Assembly: GCA_937943575.1 (NCBI GenBank)
Contig: CALEAV010000007.1
Coordinates: forward strand, 9,969 to 73,968
Direction: 5' to 3'
Origin: an uncultured bacterium
Lineage (GTDB): Bacteria > Desulfobacterota > Desulfobaccia > Desulfobaccales > 0-14-0-80-60-11
DNA: 64,000 bases
A program made the translations under genes and the position numbers. Below the pieces are notes generated by a model. That model did no database searches and had not been told where the DNA came from. It saw nothing but the letters and a program-made list of their open reading frames with translations. Shown here in pieces: positions 35,562-61,021 of this stretch. Every line of letters starts with the position of its first letter. Position 1 is the stretch's first letter.

Positions 35562-35638
35562 TGGTGGCGGTGCAGGGATTCGAACCCCGGACACTGCGGA
35601 TATGAGCCGCATGCTCTAACCAGCTGAGCTACACCGCC
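35562..35638 (-). tRNA. tRNA with CAT anticodon, probably elongator tRNA-Met
   Basis: GGCGGTGTAGCTCAGCTGGTTAGAGCATGCGGCTCATATCCGCAGTGTCCGGGGTTCGAATCCCTGCACCGCCACCA: cloverleaf, G1-C72 paired (not initiator), encoded CCA. TTGACA at 35678-35673 upstream. Confidence 0.93.
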
Positions 35639-47072: not shown

Positions 47073-47335
47073 GACAACCCTCGTCTCAGAAATAACCTGA
47101 TTAATATATCGATTTCCCCCAAAGCTTGTCAATCCCCAGGTGCGGCGGGGGGACATTTCGGCCTTGGCGGCCGGGCCACCGTGAGTGGCGGCGGGCCCCC
47201 CTGCCGCCAGACCCCTTCATGAGGCTTGGGGGAGAGGGCGTGAAGGGCAGCAGGGCGCTGCTCCTCGGGATGAGTCCAGGGCCAGGGTGCGGTCCCCCCG
47301 CGGTTTCCTTCTCCCCTTTTTTGGGCGACAATGAG

Positions 47336-47971
47336 GTGACTTCCTTCAAGGAGGCGGCCATTTTCCCCCTGTTTCTCATTGCCGCCATGGTCCTGCATGC
47401 CTGGCCGGCACCGGCCCCGGCCCAGTCCGGGAGGCCGCCTGCGGCCCTGCGCCGCCCGCCCCTCCAGCAGCTCTTTCATACCGAGCGGGTGGATGTCGTC
47501 TATGACCGCCGGGAGCACCTGGAGGAGCTGGCCCGCCGGCTGGGGGTGGCGCCGCCGGCCCCCGGAGCGCCCCCGGACCTGGGCACCCTGGCCCTGCGCT
47601 TGGATGACATGCTGGCGGAAATCACCCGGGTGCTCAAGCGCCAGCCGCCGCCGGGGGTGCGGCTTAGGCTGCGGCTTGTGCCCGATGCCCTGGCGGTGCG
47701 CCGGCAGCACGACGCCTTGACCGGCCTGCGGCCCCACACTCCCGGGCCCCGGGGCTGGCTGCCCGCCTTTTATGAGCCCAAAAGCCGCACCCTGTATCTC
47801 TCGGTGGCGGATGCCCGCATCGGCCTCCTGGCCCATGAACTGACCCACTTTGTGCTGAGCGAATCGCCCGGAGGCCGGCCCAGCGAGGTCTTCCAGGAAT
47901 CCCTGGCCCGCTATCTGGAAGAACGCTACCTCTCGGGGCGCTCCTTCGATTTCCGGCCGCCGGGGCCTTAG
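47336..47971 (+). CDS. Exported HExxH-motif protein (putative zinc metallopeptidase); start uncertain
   Basis: Signal-like N-terminus, AFYEP...TLYL, LLAHELTHFVL, FQESLARY. Confidence 0.6.
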   Translation: MTSFKEAAIFPLFLIAAMVLHAWPAPAPAQSGRPPAALRRPPLQQLFHTERVDVVYDRREHLEELARRLGVAPPAPGAPPDLGTLALRLDDMLAEITRVLKRQPPPGVRLRLRLVPDALAVRRQHDALTGLRPHTPGPRGWLPAFYEPKSRTLYLSVADARIGLLAHELTHFVLSESPGGRPSEVFQESLARYLEERYLSGRSFDFRPPGP

Positions 47972-47972
47972 G

Positions 47973-49196
47973 ATGTCGGCATCTCCCCCCCGGCTGTTCC
48001 CCGCCCTGTGCGCCGTGGGCTTTTTGGCCCGCTTCTCCTACGCTCTGGCCCGGAACCCGGTGCTGCCACTCTTTGCCCTGTATTTGGGGGCCGGGCCCGA
48101 AGCCATCGGCCTGGCGGTGGGCATCTCCACCGTCACCGGGATTTTCTTCAAGCTGCCCTCCGGCGCCCTCTCCGATGTCATCGGCCGGCGCCGCACCCTG
48201 CTCATGGGCCTGGTTATCTTCGGGGGGATGCCCTTTGCCTACCTCGTCGTCCATAACTACCCCTCCCTCATCCTCATCCGCTTCCTGCACGGGCTGGCCA
48301 CTGCCATCTACGGCCCGGTGGCCATGGCGGTGGTGGCGGATCTCGCCGGGACCAGAAAAGGCGAATGGCTCTCGTGGTTCTCCTCGGTGACCATCATGGG
48401 GACGCTGGCGGGGGCACCGGTGGGCGGATTTCTGCTCACCTTTCTGACCCAGGGCCAAGGCCCGGTTCTCGCTGACTTCCGCCTGGTCTTCCTGCTGTCC
48501 GGGCTGGCCGGGACCGCTGCCCTCCTTTTGGGTCTGATGGCCTTACGGGGGAAAGAGACGGTGGCACCTCACCCCGGGGCCCTGAAAGAGCGCCTCAGCC
48601 GGTTTTTCTCCGGCATCAAAGAGGTGCTGGGCGACCGGCGGGTGGTCATCACCTCCAACATGGAGGGTTTGCAGAACCTGACGGTGGGGGCCCTGGAGGC
48701 CTTTCTGCCGGTGTATGCGGTCACGGTGGTGGGGCTGAATGAATTTCAGGCAGGTTTGCTGTGGGGCGTCCAGGTGCTCACCACCATCCTGGCCAAGCCC
48801 ATGATGGGGCGCCTGTCCGACCGCTTCGGGCGCAAATTCATCATCGGCGCCGGCATGGTCCTGTGCGCCGGCTCTTTCGCCGCCATCCCCCGGCTCACGT
48901 CTTTCTCCCCGCTCCTTGCCACCGCCTCGGTTTTCGGGCTGGGGGAGGCCTTGGTCACCTCGTCGTGTGCAGCCCTGGTGGCGGATGTATGTCAGGAAAG
49001 ACACTTCGGCGCCGCCATGGGCGCCTTCGGCACCATCTTTGACCTCGGGCATGCCGCCGGCCCCATCCTGGCCGGCCTCCTCCTGGCCCGTCTGGATTAC
49101 CCCGGGGCCTTCGGCCTCCTGGCGGCGGTGCTCGCGTCGGCGGTGCCGGTCTTTGTCCTGGGGGTGAAGGAACCGGGACGCCGGATCGCCCGCTGA
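47973..49196 (+). CDS. MFS transporter
   Basis: About 12 TM segments; GALSDVIGRR and GRLSDRFGRK motif A repeats. Confidence 0.92.
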   Translation: MSASPPRLFPALCAVGFLARFSYALARNPVLPLFALYLGAGPEAIGLAVGISTVTGIFFKLPSGALSDVIGRRRTLLMGLVIFGGMPFAYLVVHNYPSLILIRFLHGLATAIYGPVAMAVVADLAGTRKGEWLSWFSSVTIMGTLAGAPVGGFLLTFLTQGQGPVLADFRLVFLLSGLAGTAALLLGLMALRGKETVAPHPGALKERLSRFFSGIKEVLGDRRVVITSNMEGLQNLTVGALEAFLPVYAVTVVGLNEFQAGLLWGVQVLTTILAKPMMGRLSDRFGRKFIIGAGMVLCAGSFAAIPRLTSFSPLLATASVFGLGEALVTSSCAALVADVCQERHFGAAMGAFGTIFDLGHAAGPILAGLLLARLDYPGAFGLLAAVLASAVPVFVLGVKEPGRRIAR

Positions 49197-49241: not shown

Positions 49242-51155
49242 TCAATCCCCCCGGCCGGGCAGGAGCCGGAAGAGCTGCCGCCGGGCGGCGGGCTCCAGGT
49301 GAAACTCGGCGGGCATGGGCGCGGCCAGGGCCCCCTGAAAGGCCCGGCCCAGGGGCGTGGGGGCCAGGCGGCCCCGCTGGCGCATGACCAGGGCTTCAGG
49401 CCCCTCGGACCAGGCGGCGGCCAGCCAGTGGATGCCGGCCTGGGCCAGCCGGGGGCCCAGGGCCTGCACTTGGCGGCCTTCCAGGGGGCCGGCGGTGATC
49501 CCCAGGGCGGCCACCGACTCCTGCCGGCCGAGGCGCCGCAGCTCCCCCAAGCCGGCGGCACTCGCCCCCGCCGGGAGCGTGAGCCCGTAGATCAGGTGGG
49601 GCACCGGGGAGCCGTCGGAGAAGGGCAGGGGAAAGCCGGACAGCTCGCTACCCAAGCCCGGCACCAGGGCCACGGCCCGGGGATGCTCCCGGCGCAGCTC
49701 CCCCAGCATGGCCAAAAGGTGATTCCGCCACACCGGCCAGGTGACCCGGGGGAGCAATCCGGCGGTGGCATCCCCCGGCCCGGGGTCGTGGGGCGGGCCG
49801 AAGAGCTGGAAGAGCACCGCCGGCTCCTCGGCATAACGCCGGGCCAGGATTCCCCAGAAATCCAAAGAGCCCGGATCCGGCAGCGGCGGGTCATAGCACT
49901 CACCCCCGGGGCCCCGGTGCGTGGGCAGCAGGCTGGAGAGGAGGGAGAGCTGGAGGATAGTGTACAGGCCGGCGGCGGCCGCGGTGGCGACGGCGGCATC
50001 CACCGCTTCCAGATAATCCTCGCCGTCGGCCTCGCCCCGGCCCTCCAGGGCCAGATCCTGGGCCAGGGGGAGGCGCACCACCGTGGCCCCCCAGGAGCGG
50101 AGCATCGCCGCCTCCGCCGAGCTCAGGGGGAGTGGGAAGGTGCTGCCCTGGGGGGCGGCCCGCTCCAGCCCCTGCAGGGTGACCCCCCTAAGGAGCCGCA
50201 CCCGGTCCCGTTCATCCACCAGAAAGCGCCCCTCCACCCGCAGCCAGGGAAGGTGGCCGGAGAGGCTGCCGCCGGGCAGGCGGGCGGCTCCGGGCCGGGG
50301 GTGGGGGTTGTCGGCCGGCAGGATCAGGGTCCGCTTCCGGGCCGGCGCCTCTAACGTGGGCCGGCGCCAAGGGATTTTCTTAGCGGCGGGACCCCGGCGG
50401 GGGCGGCCGATGCGGGAGCGCGGCGCCACCCCGGCGGCCCGGGGGCTTTCCCGGTCTTTGGCGGGGATTTTCCAGGGCGCCACCGGGCCGGTGGCCTTGA
50501 CCCGGGGCTTGTCCCGCTGCGGAGCGGGTTTTTGTCCGGCGGGGCGGACCACCCGGGGGCTGAGTTCAGCCGCTCGGCGGCGCTCGGACTGCGGCCGCTT
50601 TTTCTCCGGTTCCCGGGAGGCTGGCAGCTTTTCCCGGCGCCAGTCACCGCCGGGTTTGGCCGACAAGGCGAGTGGCGGCCTCTCTTTTTCCGGCCTCGGC
50701 CCCTGTGGCCGACGCGCCGGGGCCTTTTTGGCCCTGAGGGTCTGAGGCCGCCGTGGCCGGGTTTTGGCGGGTGGCTTGGCCGGCTTTGGACGGCGTTCCC
50801 GACGCTTAGGTTCCCCCGCCTGGCGGGTGGCCAAGGGGGCCATAGTGCGCCGGGCTTCCCGACTGCTCTCCCGGGCCTCCTCCTCCTTGGCTGCTTGCCG
50901 TCTTTCCTGGCGGCGTTGCTGCTGGAGACGCCGCCGGCGGGCCGCCTCCTGCTCCCGGCGGCGCCGCTCCTTCTCCTCCCGCTCCCGGGCCTCCCGCAGA
51001 GCCTCAGCCCGGCGGGCCTCCTGCCGCTGACGCTCCCGGGCCTCCTCCCGGGTCCGGACGGCGGCCTCGGCCCGGCGCTCCTCCTCCCGGCGGCGGGCCC
51101 GCTCCGCCTGCCGTTCTGCCCGGCGGCGCTCTGCCGCTCTGTCGGTGCGGCTCAT
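49242..51155 (-). CDS. Charged coiled coil, Lys/Arg/Pro-rich linker, degenerate GH5 domain
   Basis: R/E-rich helix, then WLRVEG...LLRGVTLQGLE...WGATVVRLPL...YTIL...LFQLFGPPH; no NEP or TEWG motif. Confidence 0.75.
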   Translation of the reverse strand: MSRTDRAAERRRAERQAERARRREEERRAEAAVRTREEARERQRQEARRAEALREAREREEKERRRREQEAARRRRLQQQRRQERRQAAKEEEARESSREARRTMAPLATRQAGEPKRRERRPKPAKPPAKTRPRRPQTLRAKKAPARRPQGPRPEKERPPLALSAKPGGDWRREKLPASREPEKKRPQSERRRAAELSPRVVRPAGQKPAPQRDKPRVKATGPVAPWKIPAKDRESPRAAGVAPRSRIGRPRRGPAAKKIPWRRPTLEAPARKRTLILPADNPHPRPGAARLPGGSLSGHLPWLRVEGRFLVDERDRVRLLRGVTLQGLERAAPQGSTFPLPLSSAEAAMLRSWGATVVRLPLAQDLALEGRGEADGEDYLEAVDAAVATAAAAGLYTILQLSLLSSLLPTHRGPGGECYDPPLPDPGSLDFWGILARRYAEEPAVLFQLFGPPHDPGPGDATAGLLPRVTWPVWRNHLLAMLGELRREHPRAVALVPGLGSELSGFPLPFSDGSPVPHLIYGLTLPAGASAAGLGELRRLGRQESVAALGITAGPLEGRQVQALGPRLAQAGIHWLAAAWSEGPEALVMRQRGRLAPTPLGRAFQGALAAPMPAEFHLEPAARRQLFRLLPGRGD

Positions 51156-51359
51156 GCTGCGGTCCCGTGGCGTGTCAGCGGCTCCGCCGCCACGCACAAC
51201 CCCCAGGAAATCGTAGCCATTTCGGGGCCAGGGAGGACACCCCAGAGGCAAGGCCCTGCTGCGATTCCTGATGGAATTTCATTGAAATTTCCCTTGGATA
51301 AATAAGGACCCCTGCAACGCCTGCATCCCGGCCCCCTTCGATTCCCGGGCTCCTTTCAT

Positions 51360-51623
51360 TTAGGCGACTCCCGGCTCCTCCGGCTCTTCCGGTTCCTCCG
51401 GCAGGCGGGCCCAGACCTGTTCCAGGGCCTCCTGCAGGCGGGGAAAGAGCCGGGCTTCCATCGCCGCCAGCTCCTCATCCAGCTCCCGGGCCCGCTCCGG
51501 GTCCATTTCCCCCACCTTGAGGCGCAAAAGCAGCAGCTCCTCAAAGCGGTCCAGATCCCGGGGCCGGGCCTGGGGGTGGAGGGCCAGCACCGCCGCCCGC
51601 TCCTCGGGAGTGAGGGTCCTCAT
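51360..51623 (-). CDS. Small acidic helical hypothetical protein (87 aa)
   Basis: ATGA overlap with the upstream gene's stop; MRTLTPEERAAVLALHP...EEPEEPEEP. Confidence 0.65.
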   Translation of the reverse strand: MRTLTPEERAAVLALHPQARPRDLDRFEELLLLRLKVGEMDPERARELDEELAAMEARLFPRLQEALEQVWARLPEEPEEPEEPGVA

Positions 51624-54331
51624 CGCCCCAGTTTCCATTCCAGCCGATCCCTAAGAAATCTGAGGGTCAGCCGGTCCAGACGGCACCCTGGAGGAAAACG
51701 GGCCAGGAAGTAGTTGTCCATCAGGTTGGGCTGCGCCGGGTTGATCAGCTCCGGGTGATAGCTGCACCAGGAGGCCGGGTAGCCCAGACCGTCGCGCCGG
51801 CGGTCGCTGGCGTAGCTTTGCCCGTCATAGTCGGCAAACCGCCGGGGGATGGGGCCGCCGGCCCGGGACCGGCGCTTGCGGTTCACTTCGAATAACACCA
51901 GGGGCAGGTCGGCATACAGATCATCCACGCCGCCATTGTCCCGGTCGGAGAAGGCGTGCACGAATTCATGCAAGGGATCCAGGATATAATCCACGGGCGC
52001 ATGCAGGGTCGCCACTCCCGGTTCCCGGGGCCGGCGCCGGTGGTGGTGTCTGGCCCCGTCGTAACGAAATGGGCGGCCCTCTGAGGCAATGTCGTCCACG
52101 GTGTAAGAGGCCGAGCAGCGCCGGTGGCCGGGGGAATGATAGAACACCAGGCAGACGTCGGCCTCAAGCAGCTCCGCCGCCAGATAAGCCCGGACCCGCC
52201 CCCGGTCCGGCTCCATGACGCCGCCGGCCAGCTGCCGGCACAGGGCATGGGCCGCCTCCACTGTGTCCGGGGCGAACCGGGCCGCCACCCGGATATCCAG
52301 GGCGTACGGGTGCAGCAGGGTCTCCCGCTGGCCAAAGAGCGAGCGCAGGGCCTGAGCCACCGCCCGGTGGAAGCGCTCCCGGCGGCTGAGCAGGGGCTCG
52401 GCCTGGAAGCCCCCCCGCCGGGTCTCCACCACCGGATTGGCCAGCAACAGAATGGTAAACCGGCGCTCCGCGGGCTTGCTCTCATCCCCCGGATAGATTT
52501 CGGTAAACTCCCCGGGAGCCGCCTCCACCCGAAGACTCACCGGGTCGCTATGCACCCCGTCCGGCCGCACCACCCAGCACAGCACCTCCCCCAGGGGCAC
52601 CGTGGCCGGCAGCCGGTCCACCAGCAGGAGGTGGGGCAGACTCAGCGTGGGCAGGACGGACACCCGGGCCGCCGGGGTCCAGAACTCCAGGCGGCTCCCC
52701 GGCAGAAAATCATGGCCCTGCACGGCGAAGAAATCCTCCCGCCTCGCCGGACCGGTGCGAATGAGATACCGGCCGCGGCCGCCCCGGGGCCGGTCCAGGG
52801 CGAAGGCCAGCCGGGGGAAGGCCGGCATGGTGTTCAGGGCCGCCCGGACCAGCTCTCCGAACTCGGTGGGCCGGCGGCGGGAGCCGTCCATGATGTAGGT
52901 GCGCCAGGTGACCTGGGCGCCGGTGGGCAGGGTGCGGCTCCCGGTGCCCCGCTCCACCAGAAGCGGCTTATCGGCCCAGGACCAGGCGGTCCAGCCTGCC
53001 AGGCCCGGCCAGACGCCGTCCCGGAAGCGGTGCCGATCCCGGAGATACTGCTCCAGCTCAATCCCCCAGCGGAGTTGAGCCGCCTCGCCCCCCCACTCGG
53101 TGATGAAGATGGGATGGGCCTCCCGGAGGCGGGGAAAGCCGAACCAATAATCCCAATCGGCCCGGGTGGCGGTGCTGCGGCCGGGAGTGGTGTGGTGGTA
53201 GACGTGGGCGGCATAGACGGCGTTGGGCAGGGTGCGGCCGCCGGGCAGGGGCACCGGAAAATGGCGCAGGTTGAGGGCCCAGTCCCAGCCGCTGACAAAG
53301 AGGAGGGCCCGGCCGTGCTCCCGGTGGATCACCTGCTCCAGGCGCCTCACCCAGGTGTGCCAATGGTCCACCCATTCCTTTTCCGTGGCCAGCCGGGGGG
53401 TCACCGCAGCCTGATCGTCGGCCAGGGGGACGTGAGGCTCGTTGAACAGGTCGAAGAGCACCGCCGGCTCCCGCCGGTAGCGGCTGGCCAGCAGCCGCCA
53501 GAGGCGCACGGAGTTCTCCTCCGGCAGGGGCGGCACCCGGTTCACCGAGCCGTCCGCCAGGTGCCCGAAGTCCCGGCGGGTGTCGAACCACTGCAGGTCC
53601 AGGAGCGTATAGGCGCCCTCATGGGCGGCCCACTCAATGATGCGGTCCAGGTTGGCCAGGTAATCCTCCCGGGTGAGGGCCCACTCCTGGTTGAGGGGCA
53701 GGCGGATGACATTGGCCCGCCAATGGCGCACGATCTCCCGGATGAGCTCCCGGGTGATGCCCGCGCCCTCCCGGGAGGTAGGCCGCCTCACCCCGGTGGG
53801 ATCGAGAGCCCCCCGGTCGGTGTATTCCATACCGGAGAGGTTCACGCCCCGGAGCACCACCGGGTCGCCGTCCTCGTTCACCAGGCGGTTGCCGTCCACC
53901 CGGAGCCACTTCAAGCTTCCGGAGAGGCGGCGGCGCACCGGCGGCAGGCGGGTGCCCGGGGGGGCCAGGTAGATGGCCGGGGCCTGCCGGAAATCGTGGG
54001 CCGCCAGGCTCTCCTCCTCCCCTCGGCGGCCCGGCGCGGGGCCGTCATAGGCAATGGCCCGGTAGTAAAGGTAAGGATAACGGCGGAGCGCCCGCCAGGC
54101 GGCCTCATCCAGGCGGTAGCGGGCCCGGCCCCGCTTCACCGGGAGGGGCCCTTCGTCCCGGGAGGTGGAGAAATTCTCCGGCCGGCGCCGGTTCGCCAGG
54201 GCGCCGTTGAAGAGCACCGGGTCGGTGGTCACCTCCACCTCGCAGAACTGCCGGTCCGTGGTGATGGTGAAGGCCGGAGGCGGCCCGGTGGGGTCCACGG
54301 TGGGACGCTCAGCCCGGATGCGCACTGCCAT
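51620..54331 (-). CDS. Multidomain protein: N-terminal beta-rich domain, GH5, IPT/Ig-like domain, HExxH metallopeptidase (M64-like)
   Basis: LRGVNLSGMEY, ANVIRLPLN, FDLFNEPH, YAAHVY, PIFITEWG, WTAWSW; C-terminal HEFVHAFSD...DDLY, NLMD. No signal peptide seen. Confidence 0.8.
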   Translation of the reverse strand: MAVRIRAERPTVDPTGPPPAFTITTDRQFCEVEVTTDPVLFNGALANRRRPENFSTSRDEGPLPVKRGRARYRLDEAAWRALRRYPYLYYRAIAYDGPAPGRRGEEESLAAHDFRQAPAIYLAPPGTRLPPVRRRLSGSLKWLRVDGNRLVNEDGDPVVLRGVNLSGMEYTDRGALDPTGVRRPTSREGAGITRELIREIVRHWRANVIRLPLNQEWALTREDYLANLDRIIEWAAHEGAYTLLDLQWFDTRRDFGHLADGSVNRVPPLPEENSVRLWRLLASRYRREPAVLFDLFNEPHVPLADDQAAVTPRLATEKEWVDHWHTWVRRLEQVIHREHGRALLFVSGWDWALNLRHFPVPLPGGRTLPNAVYAAHVYHHTTPGRSTATRADWDYWFGFPRLREAHPIFITEWGGEAAQLRWGIELEQYLRDRHRFRDGVWPGLAGWTAWSWADKPLLVERGTGSRTLPTGAQVTWRTYIMDGSRRRPTEFGELVRAALNTMPAFPRLAFALDRPRGGRGRYLIRTGPARREDFFAVQGHDFLPGSRLEFWTPAARVSVLPTLSLPHLLLVDRLPATVPLGEVLCWVVRPDGVHSDPVSLRVEAAPGEFTEIYPGDESKPAERRFTILLLANPVVETRRGGFQAEPLLSRRERFHRAVAQALRSLFGQRETLLHPYALDIRVAARFAPDTVEAAHALCRQLAGGVMEPDRGRVRAYLAAELLEADVCLVFYHSPGHRRCSASYTVDDIASEGRPFRYDGARHHHRRRPREPGVATLHAPVDYILDPLHEFVHAFSDRDNGGVDDLYADLPLVLFEVNRKRRSRAGGPIPRRFADYDGQSYASDRRRDGLGYPASWCSYHPELINPAQPNLMDNYFLARFPPGCRLDRLTLRFLRDRLEWKLGR

Positions 54332-54332
54332 C

Positions 54333-55133
54333 TCAGCCTCCGGCAATTTCCCGGGCCAGCGCCGCCAGGGCCGTGGCCAGCGCACCCAGATGCTCCTCTC
54401 CCGGCATCAGGGGCAGCGCGGCCACCCTGTCTGCCAGGTCCCGGGCCGCCGGGGCCAATTCCGGCAGTCGCCCGGCCAGAGAGGAAAGGCCGTCCACCAC
54501 CCCCTTCACCGCCCCGGCCACTGCCTCCGGGCTTGCCGGCGGGTCCGCCAGGAAGGCCGAGATCCTGGCCAGGGCCGCGGCCGCTTCCTTGGCCGCCGCC
54601 GGGGGAACCTCCCGGGCGAGGGCCTCCTGCAGGGCCTGGGCCGCTTGGAGGATTGCCCCAAGGCCCCGGGTGCGCCCCTCCTCCCACAGCTCCGGGGGGA
54701 GCGGGCGCACCGACAAGGACAGGGTGCTCAGGCTCTGGGCGGGAAAGAGGCCCGGGGCGGCCACCTGCAGGCCGGCCCGGTTCTCCTCCACCTGCAGCGC
54801 CGCCCTGAGGTCCAGACGGGCCTCGGCAATGACCCGGTCCCTCAGGCCCCGGGAGCCGGCCTCCAGGGCCTGGAGCAGGGCCTGGAGGATTTCTTCCACG
54901 GCCACCCCCCGGCGTCGGGCCACGGCCTCTTTCAACTTCTCCCGCACCTCCCCCAGCTGGCCGGCGAGCTTCTCCACCAGCGACTTGAGGCGGGCGTTGT
55001 CCCGCTCCAGGGCCGCCCGCTCGGCTACGGCGGCATCCCGCTCCCGCCTGAGGCTCTGGGCCAGGGCTTCCGCCACCTCGGCCCGCACCTGGGCCAGGGT
55101 GGCCTGGCGCCGGTAGAAGTCCAGCTCCGCCAC
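54333..55133 (-). CDS. Coiled coil, helix/beta-hairpin module, helical tail (hypothetical)
   Basis: GTG start 1 nt after the upstream stop; VEEILQALLQALE...IAEARLDLRAAL...LSTLSLSVRPLPP. Confidence 0.75.
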   Translation of the reverse strand: MAELDFYRRQATLAQVRAEVAEALAQSLRRERDAAVAERAALERDNARLKSLVEKLAGQLGEVREKLKEAVARRRGVAVEEILQALLQALEAGSRGLRDRVIAEARLDLRAALQVEENRAGLQVAAPGLFPAQSLSTLSLSVRPLPPELWEEGRTRGLGAILQAAQALQEALAREVPPAAAKEAAAALARISAFLADPPASPEAVAGAVKGVVDGLSSLAGRLPELAPAARDLADRVAALPLMPGEEHLGALATALAALAREIAGG

Positions 55134-55134
55134 C

Positions 55135-55914
55135 TCACTCCTCCTCAGCCCTGACGGTGGGGAGGAGGCGGAAGGTCATACGCAGGGTGGAGAGGGCTCC
55201 GGGCTCCACCCGGCCTGCCTCCGGGGTGACAAAGCGGGGCTCCGCCTCCCCGGTGCGGGGGGCCTCCAGCACCCCCCGGGCCTCCACCTCCAGGGAGGTG
55301 AGGGCGGCGGTAAACTGCTTCCCCGGCGCCGCCCGGCCCTCCGCCAGGCCCTCCAGCACCCCGGCCAGCTTGCCGGCCAGGTCCGTGGGAAAGACATGCC
55401 CCACCACCCCCCGCTCCGCCAGCCGGTCCTGCAGCCGGGAGATCTCCTCGGCCAGTTTCAGGCGCTCGGCCTGCCAGGTCTGGCGCGCCGCCTCATGCTC
55501 CCGGGTGAGCTGCTCCAGGGCCGCCTTCACCGCCTGGGAGACCTGCCGCTCCACATCCGCCTTGACCTGGGCCAGGTCCTGGAGGGCCTGGTCCCGTTCC
55601 CGCTTCCAGACCTCCGCCACCTCCCTGATGGTCCTGAGGCTCCCCAGCTCCGCCTCCTTGAGGCGCAGCTCCTCCTGGGCCCTGGCCAGGGCGGCCTCCA
55701 GCTCCCGCACCCGGCCCTGGGCCAGCTCCGCACGCTCCCTGAGCTCGGCATTGAGGGCTTCAGTGCGGGCCAGGGCCTGGCGGGTGTCCTGCAGCTCCTT
55801 GGTGGCGGCCTCCAGTTTGAAGGTCAGCTCCCGGCGGGACTGCTCCACCAGGTTCAGCTGGGTGCGGACCTGGGCCAGCTCCAGTTTGACGCGTTCCAGT
55901 TCTTCGGGCGGCAT
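55135..55914 (-). CDS. Long coiled coil plus C-terminal helix/beta-hairpin module (hypothetical)
   Basis: About 175 aa heptad region, then TDLAGKLAGVL...LTSLEVEARGVL...LSTLRMTFRLLP. Confidence 0.8.
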   Translation of the reverse strand: MPPEELERVKLELAQVRTQLNLVEQSRRELTFKLEAATKELQDTRQALARTEALNAELRERAELAQGRVRELEAALARAQEELRLKEAELGSLRTIREVAEVWKRERDQALQDLAQVKADVERQVSQAVKAALEQLTREHEAARQTWQAERLKLAEEISRLQDRLAERGVVGHVFPTDLAGKLAGVLEGLAEGRAAPGKQFTAALTSLEVEARGVLEAPRTGEAEPRFVTPEAGRVEPGALSTLRMTFRLLPTVRAEEE

Positions 55915-55917
55915 GGC

Positions 55918-56565
55918 TTAAGTTCCCGGCCCGCCGCGGTGCTGCAGCACCCGGGCCGTCTCGTCGTCCACCTTCACCAGGGCCCGCAAACTCACCGCCC
56001 CGTCTTCTTCCGCGGTCTGCACAACATACCAGGCCCGGGCGCCGCCGTTGAAGTTCACTGTCACCCGGGGCTCGGGGCGGCCTTGGGCGTCGGTAAACAG
56101 ATACGGCAGGGCCGCGGCCAAGGCCGCCTCCGCCGTCAGCGCCGGGGGGGCGGCGGCCGCTCCCGGGGGCGGCACCGCCACCACCGCCAGCTTCACGGTG
56201 CTGGCCGCCTGGAGGTCATAAGAGAACTGGTTGGTGTAGCGGGCATTCACCGGCTGGGCCCACAACCGGGGCAAGGGCTTCCGGGGCACGCCGGCCACCC
56301 GGGGGGGCTCCGCCTTGGGGGCCGGCTGCTCCAGGGCCAGGGCGATCCTGAGCTCCAGCTCGGTCCGGGGGATTTGGTACCAGGTGGCCTCGAGGCCGTA
56401 CTGGGAGAGCACCGGGTCCTCGTTGATGAGCTTCTGGATCTCGATGGAGTGGCGGTCCAGCTCGGCCTGGGCCCGGCCGATCCCGGAGCCCAGGGCCACC
56501 AACAGCTCCTCCAGAGGCGTGGAGATCAGGTCGGCGATCTGCTGGGCGGGAGTTCCGTTGGGCAT
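55918..56565 (-). CDS. DUF2589-like protein with C-terminal PepSY-like domain
   Basis: PLEELLVALGSGIGRAQAELD...WYQIPRTELEL...FSYDLQAASTVKL..VPPP, then LTAEAALAAA...WYVV...VKVDDETARVL. Confidence 0.7.
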   Translation of the reverse strand: MPNGTPAQQIADLISTPLEELLVALGSGIGRAQAELDRHSIEIQKLINEDPVLSQYGLEATWYQIPRTELELRIALALEQPAPKAEPPRVAGVPRKPLPRLWAQPVNARYTNQFSYDLQAASTVKLAVVAVPPPGAAAAPPALTAEAALAAALPYLFTDAQGRPEPRVTVNFNGGARAWYVVQTAEEDGAVSLRALVKVDDETARVLQHRGGPGT

Positions 56566-56581
56566 GAGGTTCCTCCCGGCG

Positions 56582-57190
56582 TTACGGCGTGCGGGTGACG
56601 GTGGGCGGGCTGGTAAAGGTGTTCACCGTGGTCACCGCCGGCTCCAGGCGGGAGGGCGGCGGCACCGGACGCATCACCGCCCGGAGCACGCTGGCCCCCT
56701 GGGCCTGATAGCTGTATTTGTTGGCGGTGCGGTAGTCCACCGTGCCGGCATGGGCCCGGCTGCGGCCCAGCCCCAGGAAACCCGCGGCCCGGCCCCGGGT
56801 CTCCGTCACCCGCTCCTCCCGCATGGTGATGGAGAGGCGCACCTCGATGGTGGCCTCGGTGAATTGGTAGAAGGTGGGCAGCAGACCCGCCTGGAACATG
56901 CTCATCTTCACCGGCGGGGCGCCGGTGGCGGTCACCCGGGCCCCGGTCACCGGCACCCTCTCCGTGCGGATGCCCCCGGCGCCGTCGGGCACCGTCACCT
57001 CCACGGTGCGCACCTCCGGCTCGATGATCTCCGTGACGTCGGTGAGCACCTCCACCTCGGTGTTCACCAGTGTCTTCATGGTTTCCAGGGAGTTGTGATC
57101 CAGGGCCGCCTGGCCGTCGGCGATGGCCACGGCCAGGTTGCGCACCAGTTCGGCAAAGGGCAGATCCAACAGATCGCGGCCGATGGCCAT
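56582..57190 (-). CDS. DUF2589-like protein, paralog 2
   Basis: GRDLLDLPFAELVRNLAVAIADGQAALD...GLLPTFYQFTEATIEV...YSYQAQGASVLR..RPVPPPSRL. Confidence 0.75.
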   Translation of the reverse strand: MAIGRDLLDLPFAELVRNLAVAIADGQAALDHNSLETMKTLVNTEVEVLTDVTEIIEPEVRTVEVTVPDGAGGIRTERVPVTGARVTATGAPPVKMSMFQAGLLPTFYQFTEATIEVRLSITMREERVTETRGRAAGFLGLGRSRAHAGTVDYRTANKYSYQAQGASVLRAVMRPVPPPSRLEPAVTTVNTFTSPPTVTRTP

Positions 57191-57211
57191 AACGACTCCT
57201 TTGTGCCCCGC

Positions 57212-57841
57212 CTAGCTGATGCTGACGGCTGCCGGCTGCCCCTGCAGCATGGGCAGGCAGTTGATGGTGAGCACCCGGGGCGTCAGACGACTGGGCGGCG
57301 GCACCGGTTTCAGGGTGGTCCGGAGCAGGCTCGAGCCCTCCGCCGAGTAGGAATAGGTGTTGGCAGTCTTGTAATTCACATGGGAGGCAAAGGAGGCGGA
57401 GCCCCAGCCCCAGGAGGCGCTGGCCTCCAGGGAGGCCCCCACCTCAAATTCGCTGCTGCTGGTGGTCTTCTGGGAGATGGACATCTTCACTTCAATGATG
57501 GATTCGGTGAACTGGTAGAAGGTGGGGGAGAGCCCCGCCTGCAGGAGGGTCATGTCCTCCGGGTCCATGCTCTCAAACTTCACCCGGGCGCCGGTGACGA
57601 TGATGGTCTCCCGCTGGGGGTTGCCCTCCTGGTCCCGCACCGTCACCTCCACGGTGCGGAAATCCGGCTCGATGATTTCCTGGATCTCCTGGATGATCTT
57701 CACTTTTTCCCGGGCCAGCATGCGGGCGGTGGACAGCGAGGTGCGGTCCAGGGCCAGTTGGCCCTTGGCGATGGCGAAGGCGAGGTTCATCACCATCTCG
57801 GGAAAGGGCACGTCCAACAGGTCTCTGCCGACACTTCTCAT
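57212..57841 (-). CDS. DUF2589-like protein, paralog 1
   Basis: GRDLLDVPFPEMVMNLAFAIAKGQLALD...GLSPTFYQFTESIIEV...YSYSAEGSSLLRTTLKPVPPPSRL; strong AAGGAGG RBS. Confidence 0.75.
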   Translation of the reverse strand: MRSVGRDLLDVPFPEMVMNLAFAIAKGQLALDRTSLSTARMLAREKVKIIQEIQEIIEPDFRTVEVTVRDQEGNPQRETIIVTGARVKFESMDPEDMTLLQAGLSPTFYQFTESIIEVKMSISQKTTSSSEFEVGASLEASASWGWGSASFASHVNYKTANTYSYSAEGSSLLRTTLKPVPPPSRLTPRVLTINCLPMLQGQPAAVSIS

Positions 57842-58029
57842 ACAACCTCCTTGTCAGTGAGCTGGCCGGACCGCAGGCCCGGAAGAAGGTGAAAGTTCCC
57901 GGAAAAGGGGTCGGGGCGCAGCCGCCCCAGCCCTTTCCCCACCCTCGTCTCCCCCCTGCCGCCGGGTGACGGGGAGTTTGAGAGGAGGGGGCCATTGGCC
58001 CTGCTGCCCTCCCCCCAAAAATTGCAGGT

Positions 58030-60213
58030 TCAGGCCGCCGGCTGGCCCCTCTCCCGGGCCAGGAGCTGCCGCACGGCGTTGAGGGCGAAGTGCTTCTTTA
58101 AGGCCCGGGCCGCCTTGCCCTGGGCGTCCAGCTGCACGCCGCCCACGAAGGACAAAAGCGGGCAGGCCTGAAGAACCTCCCTGCCCCCCGGGGGCATGCC
58201 GATGATGAAGCTGCCGCCCGCCGTGGCCATGAGCACCAGGCCGCCGTGGCGGGCCACGTAATCCTGGAGCAGCCGGGGTACTTCCGGGCCGGCGCGGCCG
58301 TCGGCGGGCCGCACCAGAAAGAGCTCCGGCTCCGGCCCGGCAGAGACCGCCGCACCCTGGCGCCGGGGCTGGCCCCTCAGGGCCAGATGCCGCACCTGCT
58401 CCAGGGTCTCTTCGCCCACCGTCTCCAAGGCCCGCTGCCAGGCCTCCTGGCGGCGCCAGGCGGAAAAGCCCTGGTCAGTGAAGAGCAGACGCACCTGGTG
58501 CAGCGGCGGCAGGGGGATGTGCGGCCACAGGGGGCTGGGCCCCACATACGGCACCCCCAGGGCGGCGCAGGCCAGGTCCAGATCCGGGGCGCCGGTGCCG
58601 GAAAAATCAATGGCCAGGCACATGTGCGCCAGGGCCGGCGCCAGCTCCTCCATAGAGAGGCGGACCACGCTGTCCGGGTCGCCGCCGGGCCGGGGCACCG
58701 CCACCGCCAGCCCGGGGAAGATGCGTTTAAGCAGCACCGCCAGGGGCAGCTCCGGGGGGCTCACCAGCACGTAGCCGATGGTGGCCCGGGGGGCGCCGGG
58801 GAAGAAAGGCGGCAGCCGCACCGGGATGCTCAACTCCTCGCCCCGCCGGAAGGCCTCCTGGCGGATCTGGAGGCTCACCTCCCCGGCCCGGCGCTCCGCC
58901 AGCTTCAGGCTCACCTGCACCCCGGAAGGGAGGGGGGCCAGGGTCTCGGCCACCGCCCCCTGAACCTCCGGGGGCAGGTCCTCCAAGGCCGGGCTCCCCT
59001 CCCCCGCCCGCCAGGTGATGAGGCGGCCGCGCACCGGCGGGCGCCGGGGCGGCGCCTGGCTGAGCACCCGCTCCCACTCCGAGGCGATGCGGTCCCAGCT
59101 GTAGCCCAGGGCGAACTCCCGGGACCGGCGGCTTTTTTCGGCCAGCAGGGCGCGGTCGGCATACAGGGCGCTTAAGGCCGCCACCGCCGCCTCCCGGTCC
59201 ACCAGCCCCCTGACCAGCCCGAATTCATCCACCACCCCGGCCTCCGCCGGCAGGGCGAAGCCATGCCCCGCCACCAGCTCCCGGCTGGCGGTGTAGCCCA
59301 GGGCCAGCGGCACCACCCCGGCGCTGGCGGCCTGGAGGTTGGGGAGCCCGAAGCCCTCCCCCCAGGAGGTGAGGAGGTGCACGTCGGCGGCGGCGTAGAT
59401 CTCCGCCAGCCGCTCCAGGGGGATGCCCCCTGAGGCCCGCATGCGGAAGCCCGGGGTGAAGCGCACCCTGGCCGTCAGCCCCAGGGCGTCGATGTCCTGC
59501 CGCAGGTCGTAGCGATAGAGGTCGCTTCTGGCGGCGTCGTCATCGGGGTCGGCGTGCAGGTGCAGGAGGACATCCGGCTTGTCATGGGCGAAGGCGGCAA
59601 AGATGTCCAACAGGCGGGGCAAAAGTTTGCGGGGTTGGTTGCGGGCGTCGGAAAGCACCACCAAGCGGCCCTCGTAGCCCAGGCGGGCCTTGGCCGCCGC
59701 CTTATCCGGCGGTGGCCGGAAGAGCTCAGTGTCCACCCCGTGGGGGATGTAGGCGGCGGCGATGCCGCAGGCGGCGGAGACCTCCAGGCCGAAACGGCTC
59801 ATGGCCACCGGCAGGTCCGCGGCGGCCAGCACCTTCACCCAGCCGGCGGGCAGGCGGCCTTCGGGGTCGGCCCCGTCCACCGGGTAGTAGTGCACCCAGC
59901 GGGTGCCGGAGAGGTCCAGGTAGCGCTGCACCGGCGGCTCGGTGAGGAAGCTCATCCACCAGATGTCCGCCAGGGTGATGACAAAGTGGGGCTGCAGCCG
60001 GTGGAGATACCCCAAAAGCACGTCGCTGCCGAAGCGGTCCCGGCGGATGGGATGGACGGGAATGCCCTGCCAATACGTGGTGGAGCCCTTAGCCTGCCAG
60101 CCCAGAATCTCCAGACGGTGGCCCCGGCGGGCCAGCCGGCGGCACACCTCCCGGGTCACCCCCCCGAACCCGGAAGGGGTGGTGGGACTGTCAGAGACCC
60201 ACAGAATCCGCAT
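58030..60213 (-). CDS. GT4-type (GT-B) glycosyltransferase with a ~340-aa C-terminal extension
   Basis: MRILWVSDSP..PSGFG, YIPHGVD, RNQPRK, TSWGEGFGLPNLQA, YSWDRIA; GGAGG RBS. Confidence 0.85.
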   Translation of the reverse strand: MRILWVSDSPTTPSGFGGVTREVCRRLARRGHRLEILGWQAKGSTTYWQGIPVHPIRRDRFGSDVLLGYLHRLQPHFVITLADIWWMSFLTEPPVQRYLDLSGTRWVHYYPVDGADPEGRLPAGWVKVLAAADLPVAMSRFGLEVSAACGIAAAYIPHGVDTELFRPPPDKAAAKARLGYEGRLVVLSDARNQPRKLLPRLLDIFAAFAHDKPDVLLHLHADPDDDAARSDLYRYDLRQDIDALGLTARVRFTPGFRMRASGGIPLERLAEIYAAADVHLLTSWGEGFGLPNLQAASAGVVPLALGYTASRELVAGHGFALPAEAGVVDEFGLVRGLVDREAAVAALSALYADRALLAEKSRRSREFALGYSWDRIASEWERVLSQAPPRRPPVRGRLITWRAGEGSPALEDLPPEVQGAVAETLAPLPSGVQVSLKLAERRAGEVSLQIRQEAFRRGEELSIPVRLPPFFPGAPRATIGYVLVSPPELPLAVLLKRIFPGLAVAVPRPGGDPDSVVRLSMEELAPALAHMCLAIDFSGTGAPDLDLACAALGVPYVGPSPLWPHIPLPPLHQVRLLFTDQGFSAWRRQEAWQRALETVGEETLEQVRHLALRGQPRRQGAAVSAGPEPELFLVRPADGRAGPEVPRLLQDYVARHGGLVLMATAGGSFIIGMPPGGREVLQACPLLSFVGGVQLDAQGKAARALKKHFALNAVRQLLARERGQPAA

Positions 60214-60553
60214 GGCCAAGCCTCCAGGAGGGTGAGGGCGGCGGGAAAGCTCGAAAGGAAGGGGGAAAGCCCGGTCTCTTCCGAGGGCCTCAAGCGCACC
60301 CCCATCGTAGCACATCCAAAAAAATAAAAAAATTTTTAATTTTGTTGGATATATTTTCTTTAAATTCAAACGAGTCCCGGCGGAGGAAGGGCCAGGCAGG
60401 GGAGCCCCTTGCCCCTCTCCCTCACCCCTGTCCCCGGAGGCGGGGAAGGGAGAAGGAGGCGCCACCGATCCCACCCTTTCCCGCTCCTCCCCTGCCAAGG
60501 CTGTCTGATGGCAGGGTGTGGCAAAAAGGGGGAGAAATCGGGAGGCACCTGAG

Positions 60554-61021
60554 ATGGAGATCTCCATCCCCGGGTTTGGTGACCTGTCCCTGGCCCATCT
60601 GGTCCTGGACTACAACGGCACCCTGGCCGCCGACGGCCGGCTGCTCCCCGGGGTGGCGCCGCGCCTTGTCCGGCTGGCCCCGAGCCTGGAGGTGCATGTG
60701 CTCACCGCCGACACCTTCGGGGGGGTCAGGGAGGAGTTGGCCGGGCTGCCGGTGAGGGTGACCGTTATTCCCCGGGGGGACGAAGCTCAGGCCAAGGCCG
60801 GGGTTGTCCGGACCCTGGGGGCGGAGCGCACCGCCGCCATCGGCAACGGCCGCAACGACGCCCTGATGCTCTCGGAGGCGGCCCTGGGGGTGGCGGTCCT
60901 GCAGGGGGAGGGCGCCGCCCGGGAGGCTTTGCTGGCCGCCGACGTGGTGGCCCCGGACATCCAGGCGGCCCTGGACCTTTTCCTCCACCCCGCCCGCCTC
61001 CTCGCCACCCTGCGGGCCTGA
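60554..61021 (+). CDS. Soluble P-type ATPase-like HAD hydrolase
   Basis: LVLDYNGTLAADG, LTADTFG, AIGNGRND, RLLATLR. Confidence 0.88.
   Translation: MEISIPGFGDLSLAHLVLDYNGTLAADGRLLPGVAPRLVRLAPSLEVHVLTADTFGGVREELAGLPVRVTVIPRGDEAQAKAGVVRTLGAERTAAIGNGRNDALMLSEAALGVAVLQGEGAAREALLAADVVAPDIQAALDLFLHPARLLATLRA

Follow-up and report, generated by a model that had tools for sequence, protein, structure and literature searches.

The stretch of 64,000 nucleotides (nt) analysed here comes from an uncultured bacterium of the order Desulfobaccales (GenBank assembly GCA_937943575.1, contig CALEAV010000007.1, positions 9,969 to 73,968) and is referred to below, at its full length, as the window. It encodes an operon of nine genes for which the sources searched describe no function and whose core is shared by numerous bacterial phyla and by some archaea. 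The operon probably builds a multi-subunit β-sheet assembly that carries cell-wall-type enzymes. Our preferred reading, to which we give a probability of roughly 40%, is that the product would be a hetero-oligomeric assembly acting on cell envelopes in microbial conflict. The gene order kept across genomes, the domain shared by the middle genes of the operon, the motifs of its enzymes and the repertoire of domains that accompany it in other loci are observed.

An initial annotation, made from the letters of the window alone, had recorded nine co-oriented minus-strand genes, and all nine open reading frames (ORFs) were confirmed at its coordinates. They are labelled G1 to G9 in upstream-to-downstream order (60213 to 49242), with the names of the protein types, S for G2 to G4 and CC for the coiled-coil proteins G5 and G6, used throughout the text:

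58030-60213, minus strand: G1, 727 amino acids (aa), a GT4-type glycosyltransferase with a middle extension and a P domain
57212-57841, minus strand: G2 (S1), 209 aa, an N-terminal helix and long amphipathic β-strands; the best-conserved subunit
56582-57190, minus strand: G3 (S2), 202 aa, a paralogue of S1
55918-56565, minus strand: G4 (S3), 215 aa, a short S core (residues 1 to about 135) and a PepSY-like C-terminal domain (residues 139-215)
55135-55914, minus strand: G5 (CC1), 259 aa, a coiled coil and a C-terminal S-lite domain (residues 167-259, 55138-55416)
54333-55133, minus strand: G6 (CC2), 266 aa, a helical region, an S-lite domain (residues 69-152, 54678-54929) and a helical C-terminus
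51620-54331, minus strand: G7, 903 aa, an N-terminal module, a GH5 domain and an HExxH domain
51360-51623, minus strand: G8, 87 aa, acidic, with an isoelectric point (pI) of 4.5
49242-51251, minus strand: G9, 669 aa, a basic low-complexity N-terminus and a GH5-like domain without the acid/base motif

The spacing within the central seven genes (21, 16, 3, 1, 1 and -4 nt, with starts at 54331 for G7 and 51623 for G8) was reproduced from the coordinates, the start of G8 overlapping the stop codon of G7 by 4 nt. The absence of obvious membrane segments and export signals was likewise borne out: the Kyte-Doolittle mean over 19 residues never exceeds 1.64 in any of the nine proteins, and none of them has a signal-like N-terminus.

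The evidence that these genes form a unit comes from their recurrence elsewhere. At E≤0.001 the homologues of S1 fall into 2480 clusters, every named one of which is called hypothetical, and none of the 120 clusters listed has a Pfam domain; identities to S1 are as high as 70% in Actinoplanes and 67% in Frankia. Among 185,579 species, each represented by one genome, a relative is encoded in 191 stretches, and 75 distinct loci were kept for the synteny work. By record title they come from Actinomycetota, Acidobacteriota, Chloroflexota, Eremiobacterota, Burkholderiales, cyanobacteria, Chlorobiaceae and Verrucomicrobia, and five are labelled archaeal (a Methanocalculus isolate, two metagenome-assembled genomes (MAGs) of Methanosarcinales, a Halobacteria MAG and a Nitrosopolaris MAG). 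A tblastn search over the 75 loci found G2 and G3 in all of them, G4 in 55, G1 in 40, G7 in 32, G9 in 27, G5 in 11, G6 in 3 and G8 in one; the low counts of G5 and G6 are read as divergence, not absence. The loci were surveyed again with hidden Markov models (HMMs) on stop-to-stop ORFs. Where the flanks of the S genes cover at least 600 nt upstream and at least 1500 nt downstream, as they do in 59 loci, P occurs in 58, at least two S genes in 57, at least three in 39 and S-lite in 55. Since the P domain of G1 has homologues in the small genes ahead of S1 in other loci, the universal core can be written as P-S-S-(S)-CC, often with a second CC gene after it. GT4 and GH5 are accessories and not part of the core: they occur in 24 and 18, respectively, of the 34 loci with wider flanks (at least 3 kb upstream and at least 6 kb downstream), GH5 always together with GT4. 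The co-occurrence of both with S1 homologues had been suggested for survey and was found, but the third proposed companion, the HExxH domain of G7, is restricted among the loci to the window and one other (L001).

The order of the genes recurs in dozens of unrelated genomes, and the homologues are not scattered without synteny. That the nine genes are a chance run of co-oriented hypothetical genes with no functional unity is extremely improbable; no promoter or terminator signal above chance bounds the operon, as would be expected of such a run, but its tight spacing, with 1-nt gaps and a 4-nt overlap, speaks against it, and the same order across phyla, as the synteny counts have it, already contradicts it. 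A complete five-gene version is found on a 303-kb plasmid of Sphaerotilus sulfidivorans, where hypothetical proteins of 114, 172, 178, 165 and 278 aa are encoded amid metabolic genes. Acidobacteriaceae loci add genes for a sedolisin-type peptidase and for GT2 glycosyltransferases, and the partner enzymes in other loci include M23, NAGPA (a phosphodiester glycosidase) and sedolisin. Among 41 genomes of the bacterium and its relatives, the S genes are present in four: its own genome, two of three others of the genus, none of the 21 from the rest of the family and one, of a distant type, of the 14 from a sister family. The operon is an accessory, horizontally transferred one.

The core of the operon has no match among the models of systems already described. 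G2, G3, G4 and G8 are unmatched in Pfam, NCBIfam, PADLOC and PHROGs. G5 and G6 show only weak coiled-coil-type matches, in PADLOC-DB 2.0 to JetC, LmuB and ZorA with a best E of 2.6e-5. No S1 match was found by tblastn in 50,697 phage records and no locus in IMG/VR, and PHROGs assigned no gene to a phage structural family (extracellular contractile injection system, tailocin, tail, sheath or tube).

The initial annotation had held five of the proteins to be related, which is firm for three of them (G2 to G4) and, judged by profile comparisons, moderate for the other two. G2 and G3 share 50% identity (E 3e-65). G4, a paralogue at greater distance, has a pairwise E of 9e-6, and hhalign links the G4 group to the groups of G2 and G3 at 99.3% and 99.7%, respectively. 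The common core opens with a long helix at the N-terminus, continues in amphipathic strands and closes with a motif of the type LST-x-x-x-x-F/L-x-x-x-P. In the AlphaFold2 model of G2 (mean predicted local distance difference test, pLDDT, 67) a helix at residues 13-44 is followed by long strands, with values below 50 at residues 122-169; the model of G4 (mean pLDDT 73.6) has a helix at residues 6-49 and then three strands. The alternation of hydrophobic and polar residues in the S1 strands 111-123, 131-141 and 148-158 is kept in 21 aligned S1-type sequences. S1 also has a Ser/Thr-rich segment and a proline-rich C-terminal tail. A complex prediction for G2 with G3 gave a score of 0.01, which counts neither for nor against binding. 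Two other ideas were considered and dropped: a type IV pilin, since the N-terminal helix is charged and pilin folds match with Z of only 3.2-3.6, and gas vesicles, prompted by several gas-vacuolate hosts, since no Pfam gas-vesicle family is matched.

Pairwise comparison finds no match between G5 and G6, and their kinship with the S proteins runs through S-lite, a reduced copy of the S core of about 90 aa that is present in both. Seeded with the C-terminal 95 residues of G5, an iterated HMM first collects coiled-coil proteins from other loci, then G6 and later short S3-type proteins together with G4; in a small database it matches G5 at E 6e-16 and G6 at E 2e-8. A 60-sequence S-lite alignment is collinear with the S3 profile over 81 columns (72.5%, E 3.3e-5). 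The G5 family (clusters 2, 22 and 11) recurs downstream of S genes in other loci, and G6 is linked by phmmer to cluster 41 (Actinoplanes, Frankia) and weakly to cluster 4. The sharing of one domain by all five mid-operon proteins fits the idea, raised earlier, that they co-assemble.

The C-terminal domain of G4 is PepSY-like in its modelled fold. Residues 140-215 are modelled confidently (pLDDT 82-95), and structural comparison by VIA over 61-72 residues gives Z of 7.7 for 4exr, 7.4 for YpeB, 6.9 for the propeptide of vibriolysin and 6.7 for YpmB; YpmB and vibriolysin are also the top rows of Foldseek, at a non-significant E≥0.11. The Pfam PepSY model matches none of 25 orthologues of S3.

More remote relatives of the S domain point to two families. 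All 30 matches of an ESM Atlas feature search with G2 are DUF2589 clusters, at a score of 0.95, and an S1/S2 profile aligns with a 5-sequence DUF2589 alignment at 91.6% in hhalign (E 8.1e-7, 141 columns). The two families resemble each other in a length of about 200 aa, an N-terminal helix with an L-P-F/L...A-Q motif, β-strands, a Ser/Thr-rich middle and the occurrence of adjacent paralogue pairs: genuine DUF2589 genes occur in 5 of 401 genomes (class of genome G001; loci L076-L085), each time as a neighbouring pair of paralogues some 200 aa long. They differ in that the Pfam DUF2589 model (PF11655) matches no S protein, neither G2 to G4 (E≤0.1) nor anything in the bacterium's own genome or in five other S-bearing genomes (E≤10) nor six distant S proteins (E≤1); the five DUF2589 loci retrieved span about 3.5 kb each. 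DUF2589 has no described function in the literature found, in which a passing remark notes four consecutive DUF2589-related genes that are up-regulated in Archaeoglobus.

The second family is Trypco2, represented by an alignment of 14 proteins, with which S-lite shows an end-to-end match of 77 columns (61%, E 8.1e-5; 42.5% in a second run). The chain from Trypco2 through S-lite, S3 and S1/S2 to DUF2589 is suggestive of a single superfamily, its weakest links being moderate. According to a preprint, Pepco (that is, Trypco1/2) is a protein of 117 aa with a basal amphipathic helix that forms heat- and detergent-resistant β-barrels of 9-10 subunits; it becomes toxic once its C-terminal tail is cut off, kills by permeabilising membranes and serves as a defence effector activated by proteolysis, its proteases sometimes being fused to peptidoglycan-binding domains (bioRxiv 10.1101/2025.11.14.688446). 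Beyond the alignment, S-lite resembles it in its small size, in the amphipathic helix at its N-terminus, in its β-strands and in the tail rich in proline and charged residues. The operon in the window differs in having several paralogous subunits, coiled coils, P, a glycosyltransferase and glycanases. The papers found for DUF2589, Trypco2 and Pepco, whose supplements lay outside the search, do not describe it. Set against DUF2589, which is without a function, and against the single-subunit, protease-coupled and weakly linked Pepco, the system appears to be of a new kind, with a mechanism that we infer.

An intracellular interpretation is that the operon is an abortive-infection module: the S proteins would lie dormant in the membrane of the producer as Pepco-like pores, to be triggered by coiled-coil/PASTA sensors or by the HExxH peptidase once wall precursors are disturbed by infection. 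The lack of export signals in all nine proteins, the patchy distribution indicative of horizontal transfer, the proline-rich C-terminal tail of S1, a weak match of G1 to the GT4-conflict family of Pfam (E 0.003, below the cut-off) and the nature of Pepco itself all agree with such a module. We nevertheless consider it unlikely. PADLOC is silent save for coiled-coil noise; the only peptidase-like part among the nine genes is the HExxH domain of G7, with no domain of the trypsin, caspase or STAND type that would make a Pepco-type partner; and the flanks of the operon are housekeeping genes, not a defence island. The domains that accompany S and S-lite in this and other loci (PASTA, TIG, DUF11, CARDB, PepSY, M23 and GH5) are, moreover, mostly of extracytoplasmic types, and the presence of PASTA and M23 in archaea labelled as peptidoglycan-free fits a foreign target better.

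The accompanying domains are best seen in the larger homologues of the coiled-coil proteins. A search of 1.84 billion representatives with the S-lite profile found 693 proteins at E≤0.001. Among the best 150 of these matches, 49 proteins have at least 295 aa, and of these long proteins 24 have PASTA, 11 IPT/TIG and two DUF4332 domains, with DUF11, Sortilin-Vps10, CARDB and HHH domains in one each. PASTA and TIG are placed after the S-lite domain, beyond the shared part, which suits the earlier notion of coiled-coil stalks. PASTA is also present in 8 of the 64 CC proteins within the 75 loci. On the contig of the isolate Methanocalculus chunghsingensis, a CC/S-lite protein (L054:11078-12844) ends in three PASTA stretches (E 2.8e-30). 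In an S-type locus on a contig labelled Candidatus Nitrosopolaris, a 1093-aa protein (L021:12556-15834) joins three or four copies of the N-terminal module of G7 to a Peptidase_M23 domain (E 6e-13) and NEW3; the label of this MAG as an ammonia-oxidising archaeon rests on the record title. Methanogens of the Methanocalculus group are not known to have peptidoglycan. Because PASTA and M23 occur in organisms labelled archaeal, a foreign bacterial target is favoured; the acquisition of antibacterial wall hydrolases by archaea has precedent.

The enzymatic part of the operon in the window is downstream of the coiled-coil genes, where G7 is divided as follows:

53927..54331, minus strand: N-terminal module (residues 1-135), common to other enzymes of these loci
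52922..53926, minus strand: GH5 domain (residues 136-470), recognised by Pfam and with both catalytic motifs
51623..52654, minus strand: HExxH domain (residues 560-903), an unannotated family

The assignment of G7 as a GH5 protein with an HExxH motif and of G9 as a pseudo-GH5 stands. G7 matches Pfam Cellulase at E 2.4e-19 and the structure 4hty at E 5.8e-17, and with NEP at 297 and TEWG at 411 intact it is predicted to be an active enzyme. G9 passes the same Pfam model marginally (25.3 bits, cut-off 23.5) and has GPP in place of NEP, which makes it a pseudo-enzyme by the GH5 catalytic motif. The whole G9 protein has a pI of 11.4, its first 300 or so residues being extremely basic, of low complexity and rich in Arg, Lys, Glu and Pro. 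Its orthologue in L001, of 614 aa, aligns from residue 33 of G9, which corresponds to an ATG at 51155, and the true start of G9 may be there rather than at the annotated TTG at 51251.

The HExxH domain of G7 (HEFVH at 788) has 39 homologues, mostly stand-alone proteins of 388-474 aa without a Pfam domain, and H-E-x-x-H is invariant in all 13 aligned sequences of the family. Its suggested M64-like identity did not hold: the Peptidase_M64 model (PF09471) matches none of the nine proteins and nothing in the whole genome at E≤10, and the ESM Atlas lead towards M64 scores only 0.79. G8 shares the narrow range of this domain, both being found by tblastn over the 75 loci and by phmmer only in the window and in L001 and being confined to the genus. 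Because of this common distribution and the 4-nt overlap of the genes, the two look like a cognate pair, which might be one of enzyme and inhibitor.

The N-terminal module of G7 also heads the NAGPA proteins of three loci (L004, L006 and L042). A module shared by different enzymes, and the fact that the enzymes of these loci have no leader peptides yet belong to families of secreted type, would be expected if the S barrel were an export conduit through which leaderless hydrolases pass, loosely like the holin/endolysin-based 'type 10' secretion; such a conduit would differ from the assembly that we prefer only in its purpose. It seems quite unlikely to be the main function, for the module is present in few loci only (six proteins by phmmer and three in a word-indexed database search) and in the minimal loci enzymes that could serve as cargo are missing altogether.

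At the upstream end of the operon, G1 consists of three parts:

59044..60213, minus strand: GT4-type domain (residues 1-390), matched by Pfam and PHROGs
58339..59043, minus strand: middle extension (residues 391-625), common to glycosyltransferases of about 630 aa in other loci
58033..58338, minus strand: P domain (residues 626-727), matched by phmmer to small ORFs upstream of S1

The GT4 assignment is borne out by Pfam Glycos_transf_1 (28.3 bits, cut-off 26.4) and by PHROG 2170, a glycosyltransferase (E 3.6e-33 over residues 1-387); the closest solved relative is 3oy2, glycosyltransferase B736L (E 1.1e-4). The middle extension belongs to no Pfam family and matches, by phmmer, the C-terminal parts of glycosyltransferase orthologues in many loci. 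P is in most other loci a stand-alone gene for 94-148 aa directly upstream of S1, and the homology of the P domain to the small genes that precede S1 in minimal loci is seen with hhalign for c9 (96%, E 4.8e-9) and c68 (94%, E 1.1e-7). The top match of the P profile in PDB is the propeptide of subtilisin E (E 0.13), which is a lead only, and two of 35 members match Inhibitor_I9 at E≥0.15.

G1 has relatives in seven phage records. The nearest, the glycosyltransferase of Microcystis phage Mae-JY09, is 31% identical to it, and its gene lies downstream of that for the major capsid protein, from which a single small ORF separates it; the homologue in Tetrasphaera phage TJE1 sits among sugar-nucleotide genes. 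Phage glycosyltransferases in such positions can glycosylate virion proteins, and by this analogy the location beside a capsid gene is compatible with glycosylation of a structural protein by G1. The resemblance to virion-glycosylating GT4 enzymes consists in the PHROG 2170 match and the similarity to the Mae-JY09 protein; G1 differs in being chromosomal and in its extension of 340 aa that ends in the P domain.

These features raise another alternative, that the S and CC proteins form a glycoprotein structure of the producer itself (a surface layer, sheath, coat or cytoskeletal scaffold), which GT4 decorates and GH5 trims. A very strong conservation of S1, as in self-assembling structural proteins, its Ser/Thr-rich segment, the joint presence of GT4 and GH5 in 18 of 34 loci, the extra GT2 genes beside the Acidobacteriaceae loci and the phage relative that adjoins a capsid gene are what such a structure would lead one to expect. 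It is, however, improbable in our view: the cluster is dispensable, being present in only four of 41 relatives and absent from one genome of the same genus; minimal loci have neither the glycosyltransferase nor GH5; M23, sedolisin, NAGPA and PASTA as partners point to attack on, or binding to, a wall and not to its building; and export signals are absent.

The reading that we prefer, an envelope-active assembly used in conflict between microbes, can be put together as follows. The S and S-lite domains would co-assemble into a hetero-oligomeric β-sheet ring or barrel akin to the 9-10-mers of Pepco/Trypco2. Coiled coils would project from the body of the barrel, and in homologues elsewhere would end in the PASTA and TIG domains that bind walls or surfaces. 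Leaderless enzymes would be attached to the body or released with it, namely the GH5-HExxH protein and the pseudo-GH5 in the window and M23, NAGPA or sedolisin in other loci, and the GT4 enzyme probably glycosylates a structural component. The likely role would be to breach or remodel an envelope in inter-microbial conflict through pore formation together with hydrolysis of glycans and peptides. In this scheme the co-assembly, geometry, cellular location, target and glycosylation are what we infer. A narrower version, a horizontally mobile nanomachine of a new class with a DUF2589/Pepco-like hetero-barrel, wall-binding arms and interchangeable wall-degrading enzymes, with which bacteria and some archaea would puncture and digest the envelopes of bacterial competitors, its body perhaps glycosylated by GT4, is put forward only tentatively. 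An analogy is with leaderless bacteriocin and lysis complexes, which likewise would combine a possible pore former with PASTA wall binding and M23 or GH5 hydrolases without signal peptides, and of which the coupling of the small acidic G8 to the basic enzyme G7 is also reminiscent. The difference is that neither sequence nor fold was found to relate the operon to colicins, tailocins, holins or endolysins, and that a gene for immunity or lysis is not recognisable in it.

Several observations weigh against this assembly and its proposed role. Contacts between the subunits have no direct support. Since all nine proteins are devoid of signal peptides and transmembrane segments, an extracellular site of action would require an additional export or lysis step, and no immunity-like membrane protein, lysis gene or export route is evident in the operon. 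The window's own coiled-coil proteins, G5 and G6, have no PASTA or TIG domains. The fold search proposed for the subunits, which for the C-terminus of G4 gave PepSY-like neighbours, gave nothing significant for the S1 model among solved structures: Foldseek remains at E≥0.13, with SecB in the top rows, and the best VIA matches, at Z≤4.6, are hot-dog thioesterases. Profile searches of PDB with S1/S2, Trypco2 and DUF2589 also returned nothing significant. The link to Pepco is weak. The S1/S2 profile aligns with Trypco2 at 0.03% and that of DUF2589 at 1.1%, and the Pfam Trypco2 model (PF19631) reaches only sub-threshold matches, at E 0.1 for one of six distant S proteins and at E 0.27 for one of 25 orthologues of S3. 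Finally, the HMMs behind the synteny counts were built from the very loci that were counted, and the archaeal and other assignments are record titles, mostly of MAGs.

The operon is flanked, as described earlier, by an MFS gene (47973-49196) on one side and a HAD-like gene (60518-61021) on the other, with no integrase or transposase among the 10 flanking ORFs scanned; farther out are rplM, rpsI, asd (semialdehyde dehydrogenase), a cytidylyltransferase-like gene and a phosphoglycerate mutase gene. The MFS gene is unmatched in the two members of the genus that carry the cluster. The genome of the same genus without S genes (G708, 99% complete) has the genes that flank the cluster on three contigs, indicating that the locus is rearranged. 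Between rplM and the MFS gene, on the plus strand, an ORF of 281 aa (47126-47971) matches no Pfam family at E≤0.001. The sole RNA gene detected in the window is that of a tRNA-Met (CAT) at 35562-35638 on the minus strand. The G+C content of the region is 64-75%. The only long intergenic space of the operon, 188 nt between G1 and G2 (57842-58029), lies in the kilobase of lowest G+C (0.641) and might be the site of an internal promoter of the S genes; a scan of the operon, this gap included, with a promoter consensus found no promoter, and terminators were not in excess of chance. In three other loci, from Xenophilus and a related MAG (L020, L025 and L017), S1 is preceded by thiC and genes for a trypsin-PDZ protease, a DUF3047 protein, a VTT-rhodanese protein and a HAD hydrolase, a block that is probably local synteny of close relatives.

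If the proposed mechanism is true, several thousand hypothetical proteins, among them 2480 S1-related clusters and 693 representative clusters containing S-lite, would share a single framework, and DUF2589 would gain a functional context. The barrel principle of Pepco, so far that of defence effectors with a single type of subunit, would extend to multi-subunit machines. With its five to nine genes, the operon would also make it possible to test for an inter-microbial weapon or an export route common to bacteria and archaea.

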